DNA of 64,000 nt from IMG/VR virus record IMGVR_UViG_3300032167_000048; one strand, given 5' to 3'. The notes below the pieces were generated by a model. That model was given only the letters and a program-made list of their open reading frames with translations, did no database searches and had not been told where the DNA came from. Made by a program: the position numbers and the translations under genes. Positions 18,215 to 47,170 of this stretch are shown here, one piece after another (the stretch's first letter is position 1; each line of letters starts with the position of its first letter). Source of the stretch: a virus (Duplodnaviria; Caudoviricetes).

Positions 18215-18370
18215 CGTTATATTAATAGCTTAACTGCTATATATCAGTGGAAACACTGTTTATATATAGCCACTTATTATCTTTGGTAATATGTGGTACT
18301 TCTTTTCATTCATTTTTTATAACCTTTCTTTGGCGGAGTATTTACTTAATTGTGGGTGCTCTGCTTTTTT

Positions 18371-18442
18371 GGCTCTATAGTATATCGGTTAGTACACTAG
18401 CCTGTCACGCTAGAAAGGCGAGTTCGATTCTCGCTAGAGTCG
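18371..18442 (+). tRNA. tRNA-Asp(GTC)
   Basis: Cloverleaf; CTAGC-CTGTCAC-GCTAG; GTTCGA T-loop. Confidence 0.9.
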
Positions 18443-18446
18443 TTAT

Positions 18447-18519
18447 CGCCCTGTGGACAAGTGGTTTAAGTTACATCCCTTTCACGGATGCGTCAGGGGT
18501 TCGATTCCCCTCAGGGTGA
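18447..18519 (+). tRNA. tRNA-Glu(TTC)
   Basis: CATCC-CTTTCAC-GGATG anticodon arm. Confidence 0.9.
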
Positions 18520-18527
18520 TTTGTTTT

Positions 18528-18618
18528 GATAAGGTGGCAGAGCTGGTTTAATGCACCAGATTGCTAATCTGGCGTACTTTGTTTAAAAGTACCGTGGGGT
18601 CGTAGCCCACCCTTATCG
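18528..18618 (+). tRNA. tRNA-Ser(GCT)
   Basis: CCAGA-TTGCTAA-TCTGG, long variable arm, atypical T-loop GTCGTAG. Confidence 0.8.
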
Positions 18619-18623
18619 TTTTT

Positions 18624-18813
18624 GTCGCCATAGAGACGTAAAACCTATGGTAGCGTTCTCTGCTGCGGAGAATGAAAATATGAGCAGAATAACGGAAAAG
18701 CTGGGGCGTACTCAGTAGTCATGCATTTGACACGTCAAGGTGAAAGAGGTATTGCGGTACACTACGCATTAGAAATAGTGAGAAGCCATGAGCAAGACAT
18801 GAATATCTTGCAA
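18624..18813 (+). ncRNA. Candidate structured ncRNA within the tRNA cluster
   Basis: GC-richer non-coding 190 nt with several hairpins; not a cloverleaf. Confidence 0.45.
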
Positions 18814-18817
18814 ATTT

Positions 18818-18901
18818 GCTGTGTTGGCTCAATTGGTACAGCAGCGGTCTTGAAAACCGCCATTCCGAAAGGATATCTGAGTTCAAGTCTCAGGCACAGC
18901 G
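18818..18901 (+). tRNA. tRNA-Ser(TGA)
   Basis: GCGGT-CTTGAAA-ACCGC with a variable arm. Confidence 0.9.
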
Positions 18902-18910
18902 TTTTTTTAT

Positions 18911-18991
18911 GCTGGTGTCGCATAGTGGTTAATTGCGGTAGATTTGTAATCTACTCCGAAAGGTACGTGAGTTCGAATCTCACCATCAGCT
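18911..18991 (+). tRNA. tRNA-Thr(TGT) with an extended variable arm
   Basis: GTAGA-TTTGTAA-TCTAC; acceptor GCTGGTG/CATCAGC. Confidence 0.8.
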
Positions 18992-19004
18992 TGATTTATA
19001 ATAT

Positions 19005-19077
19005 TCTTCTTTAGCTCAGTAGGTAGAGCATTCGGCTGTTAACCGAAGTGTCGTTGGTTCAAGTCCAACAAGAAGAG
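19005..19077 (+). tRNA. tRNA-Asn(GTT)
   Basis: TTCGG-CTGTTAA-CCGAA. Confidence 0.9.
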
Positions 19078-19082
19078 TTCAT

Positions 19083-19155
19083 GGGGTGTTAGCTCAGTTG
19101 GGAGAGCGCCTGCCTTGCACGCAGGAGGTCAAGGGTTCGACCCCCTTATGCTCCA
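19083..19155 (+). tRNA. tRNA-Ala(TGC)
   Basis: CCTGC-CTTGCAC-GCAGG; G3:U70. Confidence 0.92.
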
Positions 19156-19160
19156 TTTTA

Positions 19161-19235
19161 TGCGGGATAGAGCAGTCTGGTAGCTCGCTAGCCTCATAAG
19201 CTAGAGGTCGGTGGTTCAAATCCACCTCTCCGCAA
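19161..19235 (+). tRNA. tRNA-Met(CAT) with an initiator-like D arm
   Basis: CTAGC-CTCATAA-GCTAG. Confidence 0.85.
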
Positions 19236-20545: not shown

Positions 20546-21550
20546 ATGGCTAAAGAAAAGACAATAAAAGAAAAATATGAATGTATTTTATGTGGTAAGT
20601 CATATGTAAATACAAATTATTATAGCTCTAATAGTATATTTTATAGCAAAACTGGTAAACTACCATTTTGCAAACAATGTATGGAGAGATTATATCAACA
20701 ATATTATAATAAATATATGGAAGACGGATATTCGTTTCCAGAGAAAAAAGCTGTTAAAAGATTATGTATGGCTTTTGACATCTATTATAAAGAAGATGTA
20801 TTTAATTCCGCTCTTAGGAATTATAAAGAAAGCGATGTAACAAAATCTCCAATGACTCAATATATGAGAATGATACAGCTTACTCAATATAATCGTAATA
20901 ATGAAACATATGAAGATACTTTAAGAAAAGAAGAGTTGTTGAATGTTCCAACTATAAGTGCTCCAGTCGAATCTAATAATGATGATTTTGAAGTGGATGA
21001 AAAAACAATTATGTTTTTTGGTGCTGGATTTACGCCAGAGGATTATATATTCTTGAAAAGAGAATATGAAGATTGGACTGCCAGACATGAATGTCAAACA
21101 AAAGCTCAAGAAGAAGTATTTAAGGATATATGTTTTAACAGATTACAAAACTTAAAAGCATTACGAAAAGGCGAAGAAACAAAAGATATTACAGCTGCAT
21201 TCCAGAAGCTAATGGATTCTGGTAAATTGCAACCAAAGCAGAACAAAGGTGACGCTATGGCTGATAATCAAACTTTTGGTACGCTTATTGATAAATGGGA
21301 GAATACTCGTCCTCTTCCAGAAATTGATGAAGAATTGAAAGATGTAGATAAAATAGGTAATTACATCGATATATTCTTTAAGGGTCATTTAGCAAAAATG
21401 ATGGGCTTAAAAAATGGTTTATCAAATTTATATACAGAATTTATGAAAAAGTATACAGTTGAAAAGCCAGAATATAGTGACGAGGAAAATAGTGAAGTTT
21501 TATTTGATGCTATATTTGGAAATCCAGCTTCTAATTTAGATGATGATTAG
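20546..21550 (+). CDS. Zn-finger protein, probable terminase small subunit
   Basis: CILC...CKQC; directly upstream of TerL; AAGGTGG RBS favours the ATG at 20546. Confidence 0.55.
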   Translation: MAKEKTIKEKYECILCGKSYVNTNYYSSNSIFYSKTGKLPFCKQCMERLYQQYYNKYMEDGYSFPEKKAVKRLCMAFDIYYKEDVFNSALRNYKESDVTKSPMTQYMRMIQLTQYNRNNETYEDTLRKEELLNVPTISAPVESNNDDFEVDEKTIMFFGAGFTPEDYIFLKREYEDWTARHECQTKAQEEVFKDICFNRLQNLKALRKGEETKDITAAFQKLMDSGKLQPKQNKGDAMADNQTFGTLIDKWENTRPLPEIDEELKDVDKIGNYIDIFFKGHLAKMMGLKNGLSNLYTEFMKKYTVEKPEYSDEENSEVLFDAIFGNPASNLDDD

Positions 21551-21561
21551 GGGGTGGTTTT

Positions 21562-23348
21562 ATGAATATGCAACAAAAAAAATCTGAAAGACAACTTGCA
21601 AATGAAAAATCAGAAAGAATAATGAATGGTGTTGCATATTGGTAGCTTGAGCATCTTTTTATCGTTATAATCCGCATAGATTTGTAAAAGATTATTTAAA
21701 TATAAATCTAAGATTATTTCAAAAGATATTATTGTATGCAATGATGCACAATCATTATTTTATGTATATTGCTGCTCGTGGGCAGGGTAAAACCTACCTT
21801 ACAGCTTTATTTTGTGTTGTTAGATGTATTTTATTTCCTAAAACAAAAATATGTGTAGCATCTGCAACACGTTCTCAGGCAAACGAAGTTCTTTTAAAAA
21901 TAACAGAAGACTTCATGAAGACCCATGAGTGGGGGTCTGAAAACTTAAAGCGTGAAATTACATACGCTTCTGTAGGTATAAATAAAGCAGTTATTGAATT
22001 TGCTAATGGTTCATGGATAAAAGTTGTTACAGCATCTGACTCTGGTCGTGGTGCTAGATGTAATATTCTGTTGGTTGATGAGTTCCGTATGGTTGATTTG
22101 GATACTATCAATACAGTATTAAGACGATTCTTAACAGCTCCTAGAGAACCAAACTATTTACATAATCCAAAATACAAACACTTAAAAGAACGAAATAAAG
22201 AATTGTATATGAGTTCTGCATGGTACAAATCACACTGGTCTTTTGATAAGGCTAAGGCGTATGTAGTAAACTTATTAGATGATACAAAGAAATATTTCAT
22301 ATGTGGTCTTCCATATCAGATATCTATTAAAGAGGGTCTTTTGTTTAGAGAGCAGATTGAGGATGAAATGTCTGAAGCTGACTTTGACCCATTAAAATTC
22401 TCTATGGAAATGGATTGTTTATGGTTTGGAGATACAGAGGGTGCTTTCTTCACATTTGATGATGTGTCTGGAAGAAGAATGCTAAAGAATGCTGTTTATC
22501 CAACTTCTTTGGCTGGAAGCAGCAGAAATTTAAAAATACCAGAACTTGTTACAAATGAACGTAGAATTTTATCTGTGGATATTGCTTTGATGGCTTCTAA
22601 AAAACAGAACAATGACGCAAGTGCTATTATAATTAATAGTGCTATTCCAACTAATAATAATAATTATACATCTAATGTTATATATATGGAAAATCATGAA
22701 GGATTAACTACTGATGAATTAGCTTTGGTAGTGCGTAGATTATATGATATGTATAAATGTACTGATTTAGTTGTCGATACAAATGGTGTTGGACTTTCTG
22801 TTTTTGACATGTTGATTCAAGACATAGTTGACCCCACTACTGGCGAGTTATATCCAGCTCTTTCCTGCTGTAATGATAAGGCTATGGCTGAAAGATGCAA
22901 GGTGTATAATGCTCCAAAGGTAATATGGTCAATCAAGGCAAGTGCTTCATTTAATACCGAAATATGTACGCTTCTTCGTAGTGGATTCCAGAATGGTAAA
23001 ATTAATTTACTTATTTCAGAATTTGAAGCGGAAGAATTTTTAAAAGATAAGATTAAAGGTTATAGCAAAATGCCAGCTTATGAACAATTGCAATATAAGT
23101 TACCATATATACAGACAACTTTGCTTATATATGAGCTTATAAATCTTGAATATGAGATTAGAGGCACAAATGTTAAGATAACAGAAAAAGCTGGTATGCG
23201 AAAGGATAGATACTCTTCTCTCGCATATAATTATTGGGTTCAGTGTCAACTTGAACGAGAAATGTTAAAAAATCAAAAGATTGGTTTTGATGCTTATGAT
23301 TATGCGTCAAAATTAAGAAAATTAAATCATAGACCGATAACATACTAA
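21562..23348 (+). CDS. terL: Terminase large subunit with the reading frame interrupted at 21643-21650
   Basis: Walker A AARGQGKT, Walker B LLVDE, nuclease SVDIA...KDRYSS. An N-terminal segment 21562-21642 (with RBS) joins the 21651-23348 frame if 8 nt are skipped. Confidence 0.85.
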
Positions 23349-36265: not shown

Positions 36266-39200
36266 ATGGCTGATTATACAATCGAGCTGGGTGTCAAGTT
36301 GAATACCAATGAAGTTGACACTAAAATTAAAAGTTATAATAATAAAACAATTAAATTAAAAGCAGATTTTGACCCTAGTGATATCACTACAAAATTGAAT
36401 TCATATAATCCAAAGCCAATTGTTGTTAAATCTACTCTTAACACAGACGGTATAACTGCTAAAATTAAAGCTTATGACCCACGTAAAATGATTCATCTCA
36501 AATCTAAATTGAGCATGGAGAATGTTGAGACAGCTATAAGCAATTATAATAATAGCAAGCCAATTAAGCTTAGTGCAGAATTATATCAAGGAGCGCTTAA
36601 TAAGGCTGTACAAGCTCAGGCTGGAACTGTGTCAGAGATAATTACAGTTAAGGCTAAATTAGATGATAATGCTATTAATAAAGCAATTTCCACTTTTTCA
36701 TCTGGAAATTCTGCAATTCCAATCAGAGTAGACCCAGATTTTAGCAATGTTAATTTTGATAAAGTCGAGGAGCTTTTAAAGGGGTATGAGGCTAGAACGC
36801 CAATAAAAGCCAATGTTCAGATAAATAAAACTGGAATTAACAATGCAATAAGTGAATTTAATACTGAGCTTAAAGGCGATAGAAATAGAGATATTTTGTT
36901 ACAAGTTAAAATAACTGATGCTGCTATTTCTAGTGCATTATCTAAATACAATCAAAGTAATAGTGCTTCTAGCAAAACAGGAATTCCAATTGATTTAACT
37001 ATAAAACCAAATTCGGACTTTGACGCTAGGTTAAAAGCAAAAATAGCAGAATATGAAAAAGTTCCTGTTTCAATTCCAGCACAGTTAATGCCATCATATA
37101 GCAAAGGCAAAGGTTTTACATCTGAACTTCAGAAAGTTCCTATTCCTATTGATGTAACATTACAAAATCCAAAGGCTCTTAATGAGGCTATAAAAGCGCA
37201 AACTGGAAAAGTAGTTCCAGTTAAAGCGGAACTAATACCAACTGCAAATTTTGATGCTAAGATAACCAAGAAAACAATTCCAATTTATGGTGAATTAGAC
37301 CCAAAAAATATCAATGCTACAATAGACGCATTTAAACCAACATCTAAAATAAAAGTTGGTGTTAAATTAGATTCCATAGATGTAAATGATGAGGTAAGAA
37401 AATTACCAAAATCTACTGAGAAGATTGAAGTTGGCGCAAAATTATCTCCAACAAGTATTAATCAGGCTATATCTACCGCAAAGCCAACAAGTTTACTTAG
37501 AGTAAATATTGATATACAAGAGGCTGATGTTAATGCTCAAATAAGCGCAATACAGCCTACTGCCAAAATAAAAGTTTTATTGGATTTTGGCAATGCTAGT
37601 GCAACTGATAAATCTGGTGTGGCTGGTATACAAAATACTCAGTCCCCAGTAATGATGAAGGTAAAATTAGACCGTGAAGATATTAATGGTCAAATTAGGG
37701 ATTTTAAAACAACTTCAAAAATAAAAGTTGGAATTAAAGCTGATTTTGCTAGTCATTCTGGTGGTCAGACTGGTATTCCACAGCAGATTAAAAATTATAA
37801 AACTAATACTAAAATTAGAGTTGGTATTAAGTTACAAACAGACGATATTAATGCTCAGATAGAGGCAATACATCCAACTTCTAAGATTAGAGCATCTATA
37901 GATATAAATAATAGTTTAAATAAAAACGATACTAATGCTGCTAAAGTAAAAGTTCAATTAGACAAAGCTGATATTAATAATCAGATTCAAACATTTACTA
38001 GAGAATCAAAGCAAAAAATGAAATTAAATTTACAGTTTTTTGCGGCAAAGGGAAGTGGCAATAATAGTGTAACGAAACAAATAAAAAGTGCTATTGACCA
38101 ATCAGTAGGTTCAAATAAAAAGATTCCTATTAATATTGAACTTGAGCAAGGTAGCGTACAGAGAGTTCAAAGCCAAATTGATAATATTAGACAACAGATT
38201 ACGCAACTTTCTAATATAAGAATTGATTTTGGTGGTGGAGGCAATAGTGGTGGTGGTCGTGGTGCTGCCGCACAAGCTAATGAAACAGCTGAAGCATTTA
38301 GATATTTAATGTCTATCATAAATGAAATCAACTCAAAAAGAGTGCAGTTAAATAAATTGACTGGTTCTGCTCAAGCATCGAATGAAATAAGAACTCTTAC
38401 AGACCAAATAGATAGACTTGATATCGAATATAACAATTTAATAAATTCTCTTAGCGCTCGTGGAATACAGTTTACTGGAGAGCAGTGGAGTCAGCTTGAA
38501 ACAGCTATGATAAGAGCTGGAAGACAAATAGATATTGTTCAAGCAAAAATGGCCGACAAAACTATTGCTCAAGGTCAAACACAATCATTTAGAGAGCTTT
38601 CGTCAATTCTTAAAGAGATAGACTCTTTAGAGAAAAATATTACAAATTTGAAATTGCAAGGCGGAAACTCAAATCAGATTGCACTGCTTGAGGGAGAATT
38701 AAGAACTTTACAGTCTACATATCAGCATCTTGTAACAACAATGAACACTCCTTTAACCGCTGCTCAGTGGGGTTCATTGTATACACAAATTGCAAAAACA
38801 TCTGAAGATATCGATAGATTAAAAGCAAAATATGCTGACGCAAGGGCTGAGTTTTCAAAAGGCATTAAAGCGAATATTTCTAATGGTAAATTAGGCACTG
38901 AACTTAATGGTGTAATACAGAATTTTAACAGACTTGGCATTGCAAATAGACAAGTGTCTGACGATATTAGACAGTTGCAGGCGCTACTGAAAAATATGGA
39001 CGCTAGTGATGATGTAGAATCTGTTTGTAGCGATTATGAGAGATTTCAACAATTATTACAAACTGTAAAATATGGCATAAAAGATTTGCAAATTCAAATG
39101 AATGAAGCGAATAGACCAGAAATGCTGGCTGCTTCAAAAGAGGCTGCGGTACAAAAATTAAATGGTTTATTCGAAAAAGGTTCTCAGGCTGCAAAAACAT

Positions 39201-42200
39201 ATGGCAACAGAGTAAAAGAACTCAGACGCGAACTCGACAGTGTTGGAAATACCGCTGGTGTTGATTTGGTTAATAAAAAAATTAACAACCTTGCAACAGA
39301 AATCAAAAACTCAGGTCTTCAAACAAAGACGCTTAGTACCGCGTTAAAAGACCAGTTTAGAAAATATTCTTCATACTTCTCTGTATATACCGTATTTATG
39401 TATACAGCTAGAGCCTTAAGAAGCATGTTTGAGCAAGTTAAATCTATTGATGCTGCAATGACAGAGCTCAAAAAAGTTACTGACGAAACTGCTTCATCAT
39501 ATGATAAGTTTTTAACAAATGCTGCTTCAAGAGCAAAAGAAATTGGTACAACAATTGACGGTCTTGTTAAATCAACAGCAGATTTTGCAAGACTTGGATA
39601 TAACTTTGCAGACGCTCAGGGTCTTGCTGAAGTTGCAAATATTTATGCAGTAGTTGGTGATGAAATTGAGGGTGTTGAAGATGCTACTCAGAGCTTAATT
39701 TCTACAATGGCTGCATTTAAAGACCAGTCAAGCGAAATGAGCAATACAGAATTTGCAAATGAAATCATTGATAAATTTAATGAGATTGGTAATAAATTTG
39801 CAATTAGTTCTGGTGGTATTGGTGAAGCGATGAAGAGGTCGTCTTCTTCTCTTGATGCTGCAAACAACACAATTGACGAATCAATTGCGTTAATTACAGC
39901 TGCAAATACTGTAGTACAGAACCCAGATAAAGTTGGTAACGCATTTAAAACAATTTCAATGAGAATTCGTGGTGCAACAACTGAGCTTGAGGAAGCTGGC
40001 GAATCAACAGAGGGAATGGCTGAATCTACTGCTAAAATGCGTAAGGAAATTATGGCTCTCTCTGGCGTAGATATCATGATAAATGACGATACGTTCAAGT
40101 CTACATTTGATATCATGGATGAGCTTTCTAAAAAATGGGAAGATTTAACTGATATTCAGCAAGCTTCAATTATTGAACTTATGGCTGGTAAGCATCAGGG
40201 TAATGTATTTGCATCATTAATGCAAAACTTTGATATAGCAAGAGAAGCTCTTGATGTATCCATAAATTCTTCTGGCTCTGCTATGAAAGAACATGCAAAA
40301 TGGAGCGAATCTATTGAAGCCAGATTATTAAAGATTAAAGCCGCATGGCAAAGCTTATCTCAAAGCTTTTTGCAGTCAGATTTCTTAAAAGGGTTGTTAA
40401 ATACTGTTACATCTTTAGTTGACGGTTTAGACTTTCTTGTTGATAAATTTGGCACAATACCAACTCTTTTTATGGGTGGTGCTGTATTCAAAACATTGTT
40501 TAATAACAGTGGATTTTTTAAAACAATAAACACAGACCTTACTGGTATTATAAATAAGATTGGTGTTGCAAATAGAAGCATTGCAGAATTACAGCAATCT
40601 TTTTCTTCTGGTAAGGCAAATGGCGGAGGATTTTTTGGCGGAATATCTGCTGTTAAAAATTCCATGAGCAAAACCTTAACAGAAAAAGATATATCCAACA
40701 TAAAGGCATATAATGACCAAATAGATAAGTGTGTTGGTTCTCAGACAGCATGGAATCGTACAATGCTAACATCTAGTAGGCATGCACAGAATTTGGTTGC
40801 AAATGCAAAGGGCGGTAAGGTTGCAGTTGACGGTTTAACTGCATCAACAAAATCTTCTAGACTAGCAACTATTGGATTAACTGCTGCTACAACTGCTTTA
40901 AATATTGCTCTTACAATGGGAATTAGCCTTTTAATAACTGGAGTTATTAAAGCGTTAGATAAGGCTATTACAACCAAGAAAGAACTTGCTGAACAAGTTA
41001 CAGAAGTTACAGAAAAGTTTAAAGAACAACACGAACAGCTTAAGAAACTTAAAGGCGATTATGATACTTCTGATGAAAAATCAATGGCTTCTAGATATGA
41101 AAAGTTATCTAAAGGCGTTGATGACCTTGGTAGAAATATATCTTTAACTGCGGACGAATATTCTGAATATCAAGATATTTTAAATAAAATTGCAGAGCAA
41201 ATTCCTAGTCTTGTATCTGGATATGATGAACAAGGAAATGCAATGATTTCTTGCAAAGGAAATGTAGATGATTTAATAGAAGCATATGAAAATCTGATAC
41301 ATCTTCAAAATCAGGAAGTTTTAACTAGTGCTGGTGACATAGGAAAAGATTTTAATAACTCTGCTAAAGAAGCTAAAGGCAATGATTTATGGGGTTCATT
41401 TAGAAAAGGAATGACAAATATGTCTAGCTGGCAGCAGTGGCTTGCCAATGCATTAAATCCTTCATTTGGAGTCTATAAAGCTGTTGATTATATTGCCGAC
41501 TGGACTGTTGGAAATGATATGACCATTGGCACTGCAAGTGCTCTTAGAGAATTATTAAATACTGATAGAGAAGAAGTTGCTGACGTAATATCAAATTATG
41601 ACGAACAGACGTTGCAAGAAATTCAAACGGCATTAAAAGATGCCGATATTGACGTTGGATTTTTAGGGAATAATACAGCGGAAGCATTGGCAGAAGCGAT
41701 TGAAAATGAACCAGCGAAAATAAAAGGAATAATAGATAATTTTTATGGTGATTTACAAGATACCATCGACCCACAAAAATCAGTAGCATTAGCAAAATTA
41801 AGTGAAGCATTTGATGTTAGAAGTTCTCTAAGTGGAGTGAACTACGATAATATTAGCGAAGAAATGAAGGCTATTGCCACACAAACAGTTAATAGTTTAG
41901 ACTTTGATTTCTTTGCGGAGCTTTTAGATAAAGGTCAGACAATTGGGCAATGGACTGATACAATTCTTAATCAACTTAATTCTATTAGCGATGTTGATAA
42001 CGCAAAATTATCTGCGAAATTTAGTTTGGAAACAGAATTTAACAATGGCGAAATTTCATATGGAGAATATGTTAATGGAATTAAAGATGCAGAAAATTTA
42101 ATTTCTGGTCTTGATTTAGATGAAGAAGTTGTAAGTCAAATTAAGTTCAGTTTAAACACAGAAGAAGTCATAGGAAACTATGACGATATTGTAAAACGAC

Positions 42201-45200
42201 TTAATGAAATAGAAGTTGCAAATCCAGAAGAATTTTTGAGCGATTTAACAGCAAGTGAATATTCTGTAATGGTTGACTTGGTAGCAGATGATTTTGATTT
42301 AAGTGGTTTTGACGCTCAGGCTCTTAGAGATTATATTAGAAACCTTGCAGATATTAAAGATGCAATGGCTTTCGAAACAGATATTAGCGTTGATACAACT
42401 GCGTTAGAAGCTTTAAATACCGCATTATCAGAATCTGCTTCTGCTATTGGTCTTACTGAGACATCAATAGACAGTTTGAAATCAAGATATGAAGACCTTG
42501 AGGGTTACGATATATCTACTTTATTTGAGAGAACTGCTAGTGGTATCAAAGTAAATAGAGATGAACTTGCTAGGTTAGAAGAAGAATATCAGAATTTAAA
42601 ACAAGCAGATGTTCAAAAACATTTAGATACTCTTGTTGACGAATATAATAGACTCACAGCCGAGATTGACAACTGTTCAAATGCAGCTGAAAGAGCTAAA
42701 CTTATGTCTGAGCGTGACGGATATGTGTCACAGATTCAGGAACTTGCCGAATACCAAGCTCAATTAGAGGGCGTTACTGGAGCATATAAAAAATGGATTG
42801 ATGCTCAAAATGAACCAGAAGACCATGAGGGTTATGAAGCTGTTGCTTCTGGAAGAAAAGATGTAAAAGCTGAACTTGATAGAGGTATCATGAGCAAATC
42901 AACAAAAGCTTATATCGACCTCTTATCTGGCGAAGATTTATCTGGTAAAAGTATAGATGAGTATGCGGCAGCTTGGGAAAGACTTGGCGAAACAGTTGGC
43001 GAAACTGGATATACCGTTCATGATTTCTTTACAGTTAATGACGAGGGTAAAATTACAAGAACTGGTATTGATAGATTCTTCGAAAGCGTTAAAAGTGAAT
43101 TCGAAGGAATTTATGATGAAGATACTGGATTGTACGATTTTAGCGAGGATAACCTAAAAGCAATTCAAGAAAAATGGGGTATGGGTATTGATGCTATTCA
43201 ACTCATGCTTGAAGCAGCTTCATCTGCTGGTTATGAAGTTGACTGGGGTGGAATCTTTGATGATATTGAAATAGATTTTTCTGATTATGAAACATTAATC
43301 GCTCTTGCAGAATCAGCACAGCAGGCTTTTAATGACTTGGATATTGATGGGCTTGAAGATGTAGAGTTTAATTTTGAAACTTCGAATATTGAATCTGCAA
43401 CATCTGAAATGAAAGAGGCTCAGAAGATTTATAATGACCTTATAGACCCAGATAAAGACGGAAATGTTAATCTTGAAGCGGAGGGCGCTGAGGAGATGAG
43501 GGTTGTACTTTCAACTCTTATATTCCAAAAGCAGCAACTTGAAGATTCAAATATATGTCTTAACATAGATACTTCTCAATTAGATGAATCACAGGCTGAA
43601 ATTGGTGCTGCGATTAGTGCTGTTCAAAATTTTAGAGAAAAATTCAAAAATCTTGAAATAGCTATTAATACTGGCGATGGTATTGAAAATGCAAAAACGG
43701 AGCTTAAATCAGCATTAGATGGTCTTAGTGCTGAGGGAGTTGACGTTGATATTGCCGCCCAACTTATACTTGGTGAGGGTAGCGATGCTGCCGACCTTAC
43801 TGAAAAAGTTAATGCGGCAGTTGAAGCAGTTGGACAACCAGAAGTTGATGTTGGATGCAAGCTTGATGAAACAGCTATTGGGACTTTAAATTCTCAATTA
43901 TTAACTAATTTTACTCCAGAGGCTACTGTTAAAATTACTAAGATTGACGAATCATTAGTAAACAATTATCAGACTACTGAAAAGACTGCTAATGGTAAAG
44001 TTATATGGGATAATGATGAAACATTAGTTAATCAGTTTAAGGCAGAAAAACATGAAGCAAATGGTAAGGTTAAGTGGGATGATGATTCTGCAAGTCTTAA
44101 ACTTTCTGGATGGAGAGCAACTGGTACTGTAACTTGGACTAGTGGAAACAATGTTCAGGTTAAAGTTGTTAAACTTGCTAATGGTACTGCGAATGTAAAC
44201 GGAACTGCTCTTGCTGGCGGTACTACTGGTCGTGCATTTAAGCAAGGTGACTGGAGCATTAAAGACTCTGGAACTGCACTGGTTGGAGAACTTGGTACAG
44301 AAACATTAGTTCGTAATGGTAGATATTATACTATTGGTGATTCTGGCGCTGAATTTATTAAATATAAAAAAGGCGACATAGTATTCAATCACAAACAAAC
44401 AGAAGAACTTTTCAAAAATGGAAGGGTAACTTCTGGTGGTGGTCGCGGAAGAGCTTTCGCAAATGGAAGTTACGCTTCTACTGGTAGAGCGTTTGTAAAT
44501 TCGACTGTATCTGAATCAGATTGGGTTAAAAAATATAAGAATAATTCCAATACAAATAATAACACCTCTAATAATACAAGTAGCAATAGAACAAATACAA
44601 CAAATAGAAGTAATAATAATACAGATACAAAAGATACTGCTAAGGATTTTGAAGAAACATTTGACTGGATTGAAATAGCACTTGAACGTGTAGAAAAAGC
44701 TATTGATAGTCTTGACCAAAAAGCAAATGCTACATATATAACTTGGTCTAAAAGAAACAAGGCTCTTTCCGATGAAATTGGCGTTGTAAACGATGCGATG
44801 GAAATTCAGCAGATGGCTTACGAAAGATACATGGATGAGGCTAATTCTGTCGGTCTTGATAGCAAGTATAAAAAAATGGTTCAGGATGGAAGTATTGATA
44901 TTAACAATATTACCGATGAAGACCTTGCTAATAAGATAAAAGAGTATCAGGATTGGTATGAAAAAGCCCAAGATTGTAAAGACGCAATTGAAGAACTTCG
45001 CGAACAAGAAGCCGAACTTTATGCACAGAGATTTGAAAACGTTCAAAGCCAATATGACGCTGTTGTTCAGGGATATGAACATACAGAAAAAATGCTTGAT
45101 GAATATATTTCTCAGGCGGAAGCTAAAGGTCATATTGTAAGTAGCGAATATTATAATGCGTTAATTGCAAATGAAAAAGCTACTATTTCTGCGCTTGAAG

Positions 45201-47170
45201 ACGAACAGTCTGAGTTAATTGCCAAAAGACAAGAGTACTATGACGCAATGCGTGATAACGGTATGACTCATGAAGAAATTTTGGATTCTGAACAATGGAC
45301 TGAAATGTCTGCTGAGATTGATGGCGTTACCGAAGCCATCGAAGAATCTAATACTGCAATTATTGAATATGGAAATTCAATTCGTGAAGTAGACTGGGAA
45401 GTCTTTGATATGATTCAAGAAAGAATTAGTGCGGTTTCTGATGAAGCAGAATTCTTAATTGAGCTGATGAGTAATGATAAGCTGTTTGATGATAAAGGTA
45501 AGTTGACTGAGCAGGGCGCTGCTACAATGGCAATGCATGCTCAAAAGTACAACAACTACATGTATCAGGCTGATGACTATGGTGCTGAGATTGCTGATAT
45601 TGATGCAAAAATAGCTTCTGGCGAATATGATTCAAAAGACCAAGAGGTTATTAATCGAAGACAAGAACTTCTTGAAGCTCAAAGAGATTGTATACTTGCT
45701 GCTGAAGATGAAAAGCAAGCTATTAAAGACCTTACAGAAGAGGGTATAAATCTTGAACTTGATGCGCTTCAGGAACTTATTGATAAGAAGAATGAAGAGC
45801 TTGAAAGCGAAAAGGATTTATACGAATATCAGAAGAAGGTCAAAGAGCAGACCGAAGAAATTGCTTCTCTTGAAAAGCAGATGTCTGCATATTCTGGCGA
45901 TGATTCTGAAGAAGCAAAAGCAAAGATTCAAGAATTAAAAGTTTCTCTTGAAGATGCTAAAACCGAATTGCAGGAAACAGAATGGGATAAATATATTAGT
46001 GATACTTCTGCTCTCCTTGATACTTTATATTTAGAATATGAAAATATTTTAAATCAAAGATTAGACAATGTCGATTATCTTCTTGAACAAGTTGTTGCTG
46101 GTATTAATGCTACTATGGGCGTTGATGGCACTATTGATACTGCTTTGGGTTCTGAAGGTGCTATTGCTACAGCCATTTCTAACGCTGTTAGTGAGGGCGG
46201 TGGTGTTCAAAAAATCTTAAATAGTGAAGCAACAAGTGTTGGAACTACTCTTTCTACTACAATGGGTAATATTTGGACTACTGGCGAGGGAAATATTAAG
46301 TCTGTATTAACAACATATGGAACTGACTTCCAGAATAAACAGACAACAACTAATGTAGAATTAGGAAAGATAAAATCTGACGTTGCTGCTATGGTAGATG
46401 ATGTAGATAAGGATGCTAAAAAGAAAGTTGAGGAAAAGAAAACTCAAACATCTGCTAATCAGCCTGCTCCTACTCCTGCACCTAAGCCTACTCCTAAGCC
46501 TAAGGACGAAAACAAGAAAGATAATGCGACTGGTGGGGACGGAAAGGCTAAAGTTGGTGACAAAGTTAAATTTGTTAGCGGTAAGTATTATTATGATTCA
46601 TATGGTAAGTCTCCTACTGGTTCTAAAAATCAGGGTAAATATGTTTATATTACAAAAATAAACGCAAAGGGGTCACATCCATATCATATTAGTACTGGTA
46701 AAACACTTGGTAAAGGCGACTTAGGTTGGCTGAAATTAAATCAGATTAGTGGCTATGCTACTGGTAAGAGAAAATTATCAGCTGATGAAGCTGCTTGGAC
46801 TCAGGAAAAGGGTAGAGAATTTATTGTTCGCCCTTCTGATGGAGCTATTCTTACTCCAGTTGCTAAGGGTGATAGTGTTCTAAACGCTAAAGCTACTAGA
46901 AACATTTGGGATATGGCTAATTCCCCTGCTGATTTTATAAGAAATAATTTGAACTTAGGTGGTGCGGATATTCCTAGCGGTTCAAACATTAATAACAATT
47001 ACAATCAGCAGATTGGAAATGTTATATTCAAAATGGACGGAATTAAGAATTACGAAGAAATGTTATCTTCTATGCAAAAGGATAAAAACTTTGAAAAACT
47101 TATTCTTTCAATGTCAATTGATAGATTAGCTGGAAAAAGTTCTTTAGCAAAAAATAAATCAATAAGATAA
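36266..47170 (+). CDS. Tape measure protein (3634 aa)
   Basis: TP901-type core (IDAAMTELKKVT...GNAFKTISMRIRG), long helical repeats, C-terminal SH3-like segment. Confidence 0.9.
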   Translation: MADYTIELGVKLNTNEVDTKIKSYNNKTIKLKADFDPSDITTKLNSYNPKPIVVKSTLNTDGITAKIKAYDPRKMIHLKSKLSMENVETAISNYNNSKPIKLSAELYQGALNKAVQAQAGTVSEIITVKAKLDDNAINKAISTFSSGNSAIPIRVDPDFSNVNFDKVEELLKGYEARTPIKANVQINKTGINNAISEFNTELKGDRNRDILLQVKITDAAISSALSKYNQSNSASSKTGIPIDLTIKPNSDFDARLKAKIAEYEKVPVSIPAQLMPSYSKGKGFTSELQKVPIPIDVTLQNPKALNEAIKAQTGKVVPVKAELIPTANFDAKITKKTIPIYGELDPKNINATIDAFKPTSKIKVGVKLDSIDVNDEVRKLPKSTEKIEVGAKLSPTSINQAISTAKPTSLLRVNIDIQEADVNAQISAIQPTAKIKVLLDFGNASATDKSGVAGIQNTQSPVMMKVKLDREDINGQIRDFKTTSKIKVGIKADFASHSGGQTGIPQQIKNYKTNTKIRVGIKLQTDDINAQIEAIHPTSKIRASIDINNSLNKNDTNAAKVKVQLDKADINNQIQTFTRESKQKMKLNLQFFAAKGSGNNSVTKQIKSAIDQSVGSNKKIPINIELEQGSVQRVQSQIDNIRQQITQLSNIRIDFGGGGNSGGGRGAAAQANETAEAFRYLMSIINEINSKRVQLNKLTGSAQASNEIRTLTDQIDRLDIEYNNLINSLSARGIQFTGEQWSQLETAMIRAGRQIDIVQAKMADKTIAQGQTQSFRELSSILKEIDSLEKNITNLKLQGGNSNQIALLEGELRTLQSTYQHLVTTMNTPLTAAQWGSLYTQIAKTSEDIDRLKAKYADARAEFSKGIKANISNGKLGTELNGVIQNFNRLGIANRQVSDDIRQLQALLKNMDASDDVESVCSDYERFQQLLQTVKYGIKDLQIQMNEANRPEMLAASKEAAVQKLNGLFEKGSQAAKTYGNRVKELRRELDSVGNTAGVDLVNKKINNLATEIKNSGLQTKTLSTALKDQFRKYSSYFSVYTVFMYTARALRSMFEQVKSIDAAMTELKKVTDETASSYDKFLTNAASRAKEIGTTIDGLVKSTADFARLGYNFADAQGLAEVANIYAVVGDEIEGVEDATQSLISTMAAFKDQSSEMSNTEFANEIIDKFNEIGNKFAISSGGIGEAMKRSSSSLDAANNTIDESIALITAANTVVQNPDKVGNAFKTISMRIRGATTELEEAGESTEGMAESTAKMRKEIMALSGVDIMINDDTFKSTFDIMDELSKKWEDLTDIQQASIIELMAGKHQGNVFASLMQNFDIAREALDVSINSSGSAMKEHAKWSESIEARLLKIKAAWQSLSQSFLQSDFLKGLLNTVTSLVDGLDFLVDKFGTIPTLFMGGAVFKTLFNNSGFFKTINTDLTGIINKIGVANRSIAELQQSFSSGKANGGGFFGGISAVKNSMSKTLTEKDISNIKAYNDQIDKCVGSQTAWNRTMLTSSRHAQNLVANAKGGKVAVDGLTASTKSSRLATIGLTAATTALNIALTMGISLLITGVIKALDKAITTKKELAEQVTEVTEKFKEQHEQLKKLKGDYDTSDEKSMASRYEKLSKGVDDLGRNISLTADEYSEYQDILNKIAEQIPSLVSGYDEQGNAMISCKGNVDDLIEAYENLIHLQNQEVLTSAGDIGKDFNNSAKEAKGNDLWGSFRKGMTNMSSWQQWLANALNPSFGVYKAVDYIADWTVGNDMTIGTASALRELLNTDREEVADVISNYDEQTLQEIQTALKDADIDVGFLGNNTAEALAEAIENEPAKIKGIIDNFYGDLQDTIDPQKSVALAKLSEAFDVRSSLSGVNYDNISEEMKAIATQTVNSLDFDFFAELLDKGQTIGQWTDTILNQLNSISDVDNAKLSAKFSLETEFNNGEISYGEYVNGIKDAENLISGLDLDEEVVSQIKFSLNTEEVIGNYDDIVKRLNEIEVANPEEFLSDLTASEYSVMVDLVADDFDLSGFDAQALRDYIRNLADIKDAMAFETDISVDTTALEALNTALSESASAIGLTETSIDSLKSRYEDLEGYDISTLFERTASGIKVNRDELARLEEEYQNLKQADVQKHLDTLVDEYNRLTAEIDNCSNAAERAKLMSERDGYVSQIQELAEYQAQLEGVTGAYKKWIDAQNEPEDHEGYEAVASGRKDVKAELDRGIMSKSTKAYIDLLSGEDLSGKSIDEYAAAWERLGETVGETGYTVHDFFTVNDEGKITRTGIDRFFESVKSEFEGIYDEDTGLYDFSEDNLKAIQEKWGMGIDAIQLMLEAASSAGYEVDWGGIFDDIEIDFSDYETLIALAESAQQAFNDLDIDGLEDVEFNFETSNIESATSEMKEAQKIYNDLIDPDKDGNVNLEAEGAEEMRVVLSTLIFQKQQLEDSNICLNIDTSQLDESQAEIGAAISAVQNFREKFKNLEIAINTGDGIENAKTELKSALDGLSAEGVDVDIAAQLILGEGSDAADLTEKVNAAVEAVGQPEVDVGCKLDETAIGTLNSQLLTNFTPEATVKITKIDESLVNNYQTTEKTANGKVIWDNDETLVNQFKAEKHEANGKVKWDDDSASLKLSGWRATGTVTWTSGNNVQVKVVKLANGTANVNGTALAGGTTGRAFKQGDWSIKDSGTALVGELGTETLVRNGRYYTIGDSGAEFIKYKKGDIVFNHKQTEELFKNGRVTSGGGRGRAFANGSYASTGRAFVNSTVSESDWVKKYKNNSNTNNNTSNNTSSNRTNTTNRSNNNTDTKDTAKDFEETFDWIEIALERVEKAIDSLDQKANATYITWSKRNKALSDEIGVVNDAMEIQQMAYERYMDEANSVGLDSKYKKMVQDGSIDINNITDEDLANKIKEYQDWYEKAQDCKDAIEELREQEAELYAQRFENVQSQYDAVVQGYEHTEKMLDEYISQAEAKGHIVSSEYYNALIANEKATISALEDEQSELIAKRQEYYDAMRDNGMTHEEILDSEQWTEMSAEIDGVTEAIEESNTAIIEYGNSIREVDWEVFDMIQERISAVSDEAEFLIELMSNDKLFDDKGKLTEQGAATMAMHAQKYNNYMYQADDYGAEIADIDAKIASGEYDSKDQEVINRRQELLEAQRDCILAAEDEKQAIKDLTEEGINLELDALQELIDKKNEELESEKDLYEYQKKVKEQTEEIASLEKQMSAYSGDDSEEAKAKIQELKVSLEDAKTELQETEWDKYISDTSALLDTLYLEYENILNQRLDNVDYLLEQVVAGINATMGVDGTIDTALGSEGAIATAISNAVSEGGGVQKILNSEATSVGTTLSTTMGNIWTTGEGNIKSVLTTYGTDFQNKQTTTNVELGKIKSDVAAMVDDVDKDAKKKVEEKKTQTSANQPAPTPAPKPTPKPKDENKKDNATGGDGKAKVGDKVKFVSGKYYYDSYGKSPTGSKNQGKYVYITKINAKGSHPYHISTGKTLGKGDLGWLKLNQISGYATGKRKLSADEAAWTQEKGREFIVRPSDGAILTPVAKGDSVLNAKATRNIWDMANSPADFIRNNLNLGGADIPSGSNINNNYNQQIGNVIFKMDGIKNYEEMLSSMQKDKNFEKLILSMSIDRLAGKSSLAKNKSIR

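Follow-up and report, generated by a model that had tools for sequence, protein, structure and literature searches.

The locus raises the question of how a phage gene for the large terminase subunit (TerL), broken after 27 codons by a stop codon and a change of frame, could still give a complete protein. The window (the whole stretch of 64,000 nucleotides that was analysed) derives from an SPbeta-like phage of about 118-130 kb and low GC content (32% in the window), from an uncultured gut Firmicute. Comparison with related genes indicates that the best reading of the break is likely to be a short programmed translational bypass, or stop-hop, which would join the two pieces of terL.

Layout of the interrupted terL gene

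The gene encodes a large terminase of the SPbeta YonF type, as judged from its domains, its homology to YonF, its GQGKT motif, and its YonG-like and portal neighbours. Two Pfam families, Terminase_6N (E 2.4e-7) and TerL_ATPase (E 2.9e-6), match the larger piece above cut-off. Aligned with YonF, which is the terminase of Bacillus phage SPbeta, this piece shows 48% identity across 97% of its length, and it carries the LFQ adenine-binding motif, the Walker A motif GQGKT and the nuclease half. A reading of positions 21400-21900 places the end of the YonG-like upstream neighbour at the TAG 21548-21550, followed by these features of terL and, further on, of the late module:

21550-21557, + strand: Shine-Dalgarno sequence GGGGGTGG of the true terL start, kept in relatives L164, L181 and L194
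21562-21642, + strand: terL piece 1, 27 codons (MNMQQKKSERQLANEKSERIMNGVAYW), the last being the take-off codon TGG (21640-21642); homologous to the N-termini of uninterrupted relatives and of SPbeta YonF
21643-21650, + strand: 8-nt coding gap TAGCTTGA, made of the A-site stop TAG (21643-21645), two variable nucleotides and the landing codon TGA (21648-21650)
21651-23348, + strand: terL piece 2, 565 codons, with resume codon GCA and stop codon at 23346-23348
21732-21743, + strand: TTG 21732 and ATG 21741, starts chosen by gene callers, probably non-functional; they have no Shine-Dalgarno sequence, and the family-invariant F49 and Q50 would be lost
36266-47170: single open reading frame (ORF) of 3634 aa in the late module, intact

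Piece 1 begins at ATG 21562 and closes with the codons TAT TGG TAG. The TerL frame lies at -1 relative to this first ORF and is open from GCA 21651, and start codons (ATG, GTG or TTG) are absent from 21651 up to TTG 21732. On direct reading, an in-frame stop persists after removal of any 2 or 5 contiguous bases, and the frame is restored only by removal of 8 nt (21643-21650 or 21644-21651); the two frames cannot be joined by any single indel or single frameshift. Skipping 21643-21650 yields ...NGVAYW/ASFYRYNP... (the slash marks the join), which is collinear with uninterrupted relatives and, beyond what chance would give, matches them residue for residue with no gap; the break falls at codon 27 of a joined product that would be 592 aa long.

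These readings bear out an earlier note made from the sequence alone. It had claimed that a ribosome-binding site and the ATG at 21562 open a short ORF ending at TAG 21643, and GGGGGTGG and the 27 codons are indeed seen; that skipping 21643-21650 restores the TerL N-terminus, and the resulting junction equals that of uninterrupted relatives with no residue added or lost; that a simple -1 shift is barred by an in-frame TGA at 21648, and TGA 21648-21650 is seen to close the TerL frame; and that TTG 21732 has no Shine-Dalgarno sequence, which is so on reading the sequence ahead of both 21732 and 21741.

No interruption is present across this junction in SPbeta YonF or in MT836002, the closest phage contig in GenBank; the junction reads ...KSEKIMNAVAWHCGMYRKNPQRF in MT836002, and the 27-aa ORF of the window is therefore the true TerL N-terminus. 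A run of eight A residues lies at 21574-21581 (codons 4-7 of terL) and is kept in close relatives. A frameshift at this run was considered and rejected: it is unable to rescue the frame because a TGA follows directly in the -1 frame, and the first ORF is selected in frame 0.

Apart from terL, every late gene of the window is intact and whole under code 11. Besides the 3634-aa ORF, this includes one of 1232 aa and one that exceeds 2122 aa and extends beyond the end of the window. The late module is compact and fully open, and the element is not decaying. Eight tRNA genes (Asp, Glu, Ser-GCT, Ser-TGA, Thr, Asn, Ala and Met) are present at 18370-19235, directly upstream of the late packaging module; none of the eight is a suppressor tRNA or a tRNA-Trp.

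Short inserts across the terL family

Among the best 120 protein relatives (79-100% identity), about 100 are 587-596 aa long and read ...KSERIMNGVAYWASFYRYNP..., which equals the window pieces joined; the junction of the joined peptide is exactly that of these uninterrupted relatives, at 80-89% identity. Beside the window's own protein (P0003), 13 of the 120 are called short (527-535 aa), and 4 more have an N-terminus that is a frame-shifted reading of NGVAYW.

The DNA of the relatives was taken from viral, genome and metagenome collections and the junction was scanned in each. Of the 110 TerL cores that differ in sequence, 32 contain a short insert of 4-14 nt, placed at codon 27 or at codon 33. 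About 60 different junction sequences have no insert, and the others can be sorted by site into three classes. Site A follows the Trp codon and holds 16 distinct inserts: TAGG (in two separate clades), TGAGG, TAGTGA, TAACTGA, TAATTGT, TAG-NN-TGA in six forms, TAGTATGC, TAAATTGT, TAAATATGC, TAACAACTTTGG and TAATATTTTTTTGG. The TAG-NN-TGA layout is kept in 7 diverged relatives, where NN is CT, AA, AG, TA, CG or CC. CT is shared by the window and L164, whose insert is identical to that of the window and is followed by 6 substitutions within the next 24 nt, and L181, L182, L186, L005 and L067 have the layout at the same place with another NN. Site B lies six codons downstream (FYR-His) and reads CAT or CAC TAG CAA, or CAT TAG CAT, the variant CGT CAT TAG CAA AAT being present in several loci. 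Site C is the same codon as site B where this is Tyr, and reads TAT TGAC. Removal of the insert restores the exact family length in every case at all three sites. All relatives come from metagenomes and none is a phage known to form plaques, which counts against the hop.

The inserts follow a common grammar. Each of the 16 different inserts at site A opens with a stop (TAG, TAA or TGA), and its last triplet (TGA, TGC, TGT, AGG or TGG) agrees in register with TGG at two or three positions, a match expected by chance at 0.14 per insert; in other registers matching triplets make up only 5/64. The window landing codon TGA matches the take-off codon at two of three positions, and TGG in relatives at all three. 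Site B fits the same rule (CAT to CAT or CAA), as does site C (TAT to GAC). Site-A inserts are 4, 5, 6, 7, 8, 9, 12 or 14 nt long and comprise +1 (4, 7 nt), -1/+2 (5, 8, 14 nt) and in-frame (6, 9, 12 nt) classes. Since they span all three frame classes, no single frameshift or read-through mechanism would cover every insert, and only a hop to a similar landing codon appears to account for them all. The earlier note had proposed looking for relatives with a similar insert at the same Trp codon, and had pointed to the order of take-off TGG, stop and near-matching TGA; the 16 distinct Trp-site inserts supply both the relatives and the recurrence of that order, 16 times out of 16. Its competing idea of a private mutation does not agree with an interruption common to 32 of 110 distinct relatives.

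A TerL tree was built for 160 loci (110 distinct sequences) from 480 core residues; it shows at least 9 changes of the interrupted state and at least 16 of the insert type. The well-supported clade of the window (28 rows) is mostly interrupted, with many insert types, and the nearest relative, L181 (93% identity, GCA_045633265.1), carries TAGTATGA; its contig belongs to a MAG, and related MAGs are Clostridia. By Nei-Gojobori counts over the 15 interrupted site-A loci, pN/pS is 0.17 in the final 20 codons of piece 1 and 0.16 in the 28 start-less codons that open piece 2, with synonymous sites nearly saturated (pS 0.69-0.77). In interrupted lineages both pieces are thus under purifying selection, and each is therefore translated in its own frame. 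The other 480 codons are free of stops and frameshifts in all 160 loci whose core match is contiguous; outside this set are contig ends, carriers of large inserts, L097, and L076 and L162. An apparent frameshift in L097 was rejected as a run of N. The terL core of L076 (3000-3004) and of L162, which has the same sequence, is frameshifted by a 4-nt deletion relative to L030 (ACTAAG----ATTTTATC), which is an ordinary lesion or assembly error and, having no stop-first grammar, contrasts with the putative hop sites.

Other interruptions of terL were also recorded. In about a quarter of the relatives an insert of 1.0-1.3 kb divides the gene, separating NPHRF from the Walker A GKT (L027 at 1236-2492, L028-L031, L034, L036, L039, L058, L059, L066, L068-L070, L074, L076, L094, L101 and others). 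The insert of L027 encodes a 314-aa HNH endonuclease (Pfam E 7.7e-6); Rfam identified no group I or group II intron in the large HNH insert, which could be an intron, a split gene or a free-standing homing cassette. The short inserts are not associated with this large insert, which is found in 12 of 40 interrupted and 29 of 108 uninterrupted loci. Inserts of about 0.9-1.0 kb lie near P0001 residue 195 in L060, L081, L082, L100, L145 and L150, and one of about 0.4 kb near residue 140 in L093. A Staphylococcus phage SPbeta-like genome (NC_029119, locus L192) was examined as a cultured example of hopping and rejected, as it has a plain 2-nt mid-gene deletion with no hop grammar: its terL lacks GG relative to MT955612 (NC_029119.1 33620-33630) and is for this reason annotated as two hypothetical proteins. 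This deletion is probably a sequencing error or mutation and not recoding.

The candidate hop and its rivals

An essential gene that is interrupted by two stops, and of which gene callers annotate only a truncated product of 528-538 aa, might simply be dead; the 8 nt would then be an artefact of assembly, or an insertion that knocked out terL in a defective prophage. This is very improbable given that independent assemblies whose proteins are 84-93% identical share this architecture, its two flanks having drifted synonymously, and that the remaining late module is intact. The lesion-like features of the 32 interrupted sequences are moreover confined to 7 of about 590 codons, where they follow the grammar of a leading stop and a matched landing codon, a pattern that random decay does not yield. 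The own Shine-Dalgarno sequence and stop of the first ORF, and the in-frame TTG and ATG downstream, would also agree with two separate products, a 27-aa peptide and a truncated TerL made from TTG 21732 or ATG 21741 or by re-initiation after the TAG. Such an arrangement is very improbable, however, as it would leave unexplained the 27 start-less codons 21651-21732, which evolve with a pN/pS of 0.16 among interrupted relatives and encode the family-invariant F49 and Q50; the two candidate starts have no Shine-Dalgarno sequence, and the sole TTG near the stop (21647) is out of frame.

A stop codon in the A site also stimulates +1 frameshifting, as in prfB, and the 4- and 7-nt inserts of relatives could each be read by one +1 shift. 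In the window, recoding of this kind would have to consist of two successive +1 shifts, or of a -1 shift and read-through of UGA as Trp, adding 2-3 residues. It has a very low probability: each route requires two rare events in series; the residues would be added to a junction of family-invariant length, within what a weak model predicts to be a continuous helix; the in-frame double stop TAG TGA of L017 and the matched TGG...TGG variants would be left unexplained; and tRNA-Trp would re-pair poorly at GGU. A prfB-type shift is further at odds with the position of TerL in the -1/+2 frame, the +1 frame ending at TAA after 9 codons, and with the absence from the window of a Shine-Dalgarno sequence 3 nt upstream of the stop. 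An alternative genetic code, with TAG or TGA read as an amino acid, could be suggested by the in-frame TAG variants among relatives and by stop recoding, which a preprint describes as widespread in gut phages (bioRxiv 10.1101/2021.08.26.457843). It is nevertheless exceedingly improbable, since reading these codons as sense leaves the two frames unjoined, every other late ORF is whole under code 11, and the 8 tRNAs of the window include no suppressor.

A UGG-to-UGA hop over TAGCTTGA is supported as the sole reading that fits the comparative data. Translation would begin at ATG 21562 and reach codon 27 with the P-site UGG paired to peptidyl-tRNA-Trp and UAG in the A site. Because termination would be slow, the peptidyl-tRNA would unpair and the mRNA slide by 8 nt, and the CCA anticodon would re-pair at UGA 21648-21650 through two Watson-Crick pairs and a C-A wobble mismatch. 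Decoding would restart at GCA 21651 to give a TerL of 592 aa with the junction ...GVAYW-ASFYR... of uninterrupted relatives, for which the predicted tryptic junction peptide is IMNGVAYWASFYR. Ribosomes that do not hop would terminate, and the early position of the site means that a failed hop would cost only the 27-aa peptide they release. The leakiness of UGA rests on the pairing of tRNA-Trp with this codon. Counting against the hop, the landing codon of the window is only a two-of-three match and is itself a stop, and the unstimulated stop-hops in the E. coli constructs of Weiss and colleagues in 1987 were reportedly inefficient.

A further point against the hop is that RNA structure at the window site does not exceed that of shuffled controls (z = +0.5 and +1.4), so that no stimulatory element is predicted there. 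An Rfam scan of 21000-22500 gave no match. In two relatives (L039:1322-1345, z -3.4; L188:1394-1410, z -2.5) the insert is complementary to the GCATAT just upstream and forms a hairpin of 7-10 bp, whose loop contains or adjoins the take-off Trp codon and the stop; this hairpin may be a take-off stem-loop or a trace of the origin of the insert. The Lys/Arg-rich N-terminal nascent peptide before the site is conserved equally in uninterrupted relatives. An AlphaFold model of an uninterrupted relative (mean pLDDT 49.7) places the junction in a helix of residues 8-32 (pLDDT about 72-80), which would fit the strict length conservation and is given little weight.

From these patterns we infer the hop itself, with whatever efficiency it would have, and any regulatory role, such as lowering or conditioning the supply of TerL; gating or timing of packaging would be a plausible purpose. 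Tentatively, the first 33 codons of TerL may form a context that permits hopping, to which tRNA-Trp and the conserved basic nascent peptide perhaps contribute, and in which the recurrent gain and loss of stop-first mini-inserts (at least 9 state changes) could be adaptive. The inserts might then act as a tunable attenuator or conditional gate of terminase supply, which would for example be sensitive to release-factor activity, or might confer immunity to the HNH homing endonucleases that invade terL in relatives. This adaptive reading is possible but rather doubtful.

Comparison with known bypass systems

The features common to bypass sites are found here at the sequence level, as the junction reproduces homologues, a stop lies 3' of the take-off codon and the landing codon resembles it. 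Natural bypassing is documented in few systems, namely T4 gene 60, the byps of yeast mitochondria and, tentatively, the terminase of phiHau3, and a literature search found no published account of short inserts in the SPbeta-like TerL family. This family supplies more than 20 natural variants, with take-off-to-landing gaps of 1-11 nt, three stop codons, five landing triplets and two take-off sites in one well-conserved context, and these form a ready allelic series for measuring the rules of short-range hopping. Gene callers truncate such terL genes or label them as pseudogenes, and intact gut phages can in this way be scored as defective.

The bypass that the earlier note mentions for a Streptomyces phage terminase is that of phiHau3. 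This terminase is interrupted by two gaps of 10 nt, both beginning with the rare codon UUA, and mass spectrometry in E. coli detected a peptide that spans a bypass junction (PMC10732093). Gaps of 7 nt are present in related prophages (StrepC.1 and an S. catenulae prophage; Smith et al. 2013; PMC10732093). Both systems have a short frame-disrupting insert in a phage terL whose flanks are contiguous in relatives, a slow-to-decode A-site codon at take-off, and Trp at or adjoining the take-off site. Both also conserve the length of the junction, which argues for a hop over a frameshift in either case. The A-site codon of phiHau3 is a rare sense codon tied to the bldA tRNA of the host, whereas here it is the stop TAG, or TAG, TAA or TGA in relatives. 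The phiHau3 case was found in 3 of 100 terminase genes, and the present one in about 30% of the family, with at least 9 state changes and many gap lengths. The host phylum is also different, and, unlike in phiHau3, no Shine-Dalgarno or stem-loop stimulator is evident in the window.

As in T4 gene 60, UAG directly follows the take-off codon, the peptidyl-tRNA would re-pair at a similar codon, the site is early (codon 46 in gene 60, codon 27 here), and selfish endonuclease genes operate close by, in this case in relatives. The gap is 8 nt here and 50 nt in gene 60, the window has no take-off stem-loop, and the landing codon is a near match where that of gene 60 is identical.

Stop-hops between matched codons flanking a stop were engineered in E. 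coli (Weiss, Dunn, Atkins and Gesteland 1987, reviewed in PMC5009743), and a 2016 review knew of no natural in-frame stop-hop (PMC5009743). The proposed event resembles these in the passage of peptidyl-tRNA over a stop to a matched codon a few nucleotides downstream, and the CAT TAG CAT of relatives is the exact synthetic design, 9 nt coding for one residue. It differs in that the sites are natural and conserved in an essential gene, and in that the window variant shifts frame and would land on UGA. If the hop-permissive reading is true, the family would contain the first natural in-frame stop-hops (CAT TAG CAT and TGG TAG TGA).

The mitochondrial byps of Magnusiomyces capitatus share with the present inserts their shortness, a landing by two-out-of-three pairing, and an unused or stop-like A-site codon. 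They are mobile elements of 27-55 nt in many mitochondrial genes, whereas the terL inserts are very small and occur at only two codons of a single gene of a bacterial virus. The closest precedents for a hop in terL are the phiHau3 terminase, T4 gene 60 and the synthetic stop-hops.
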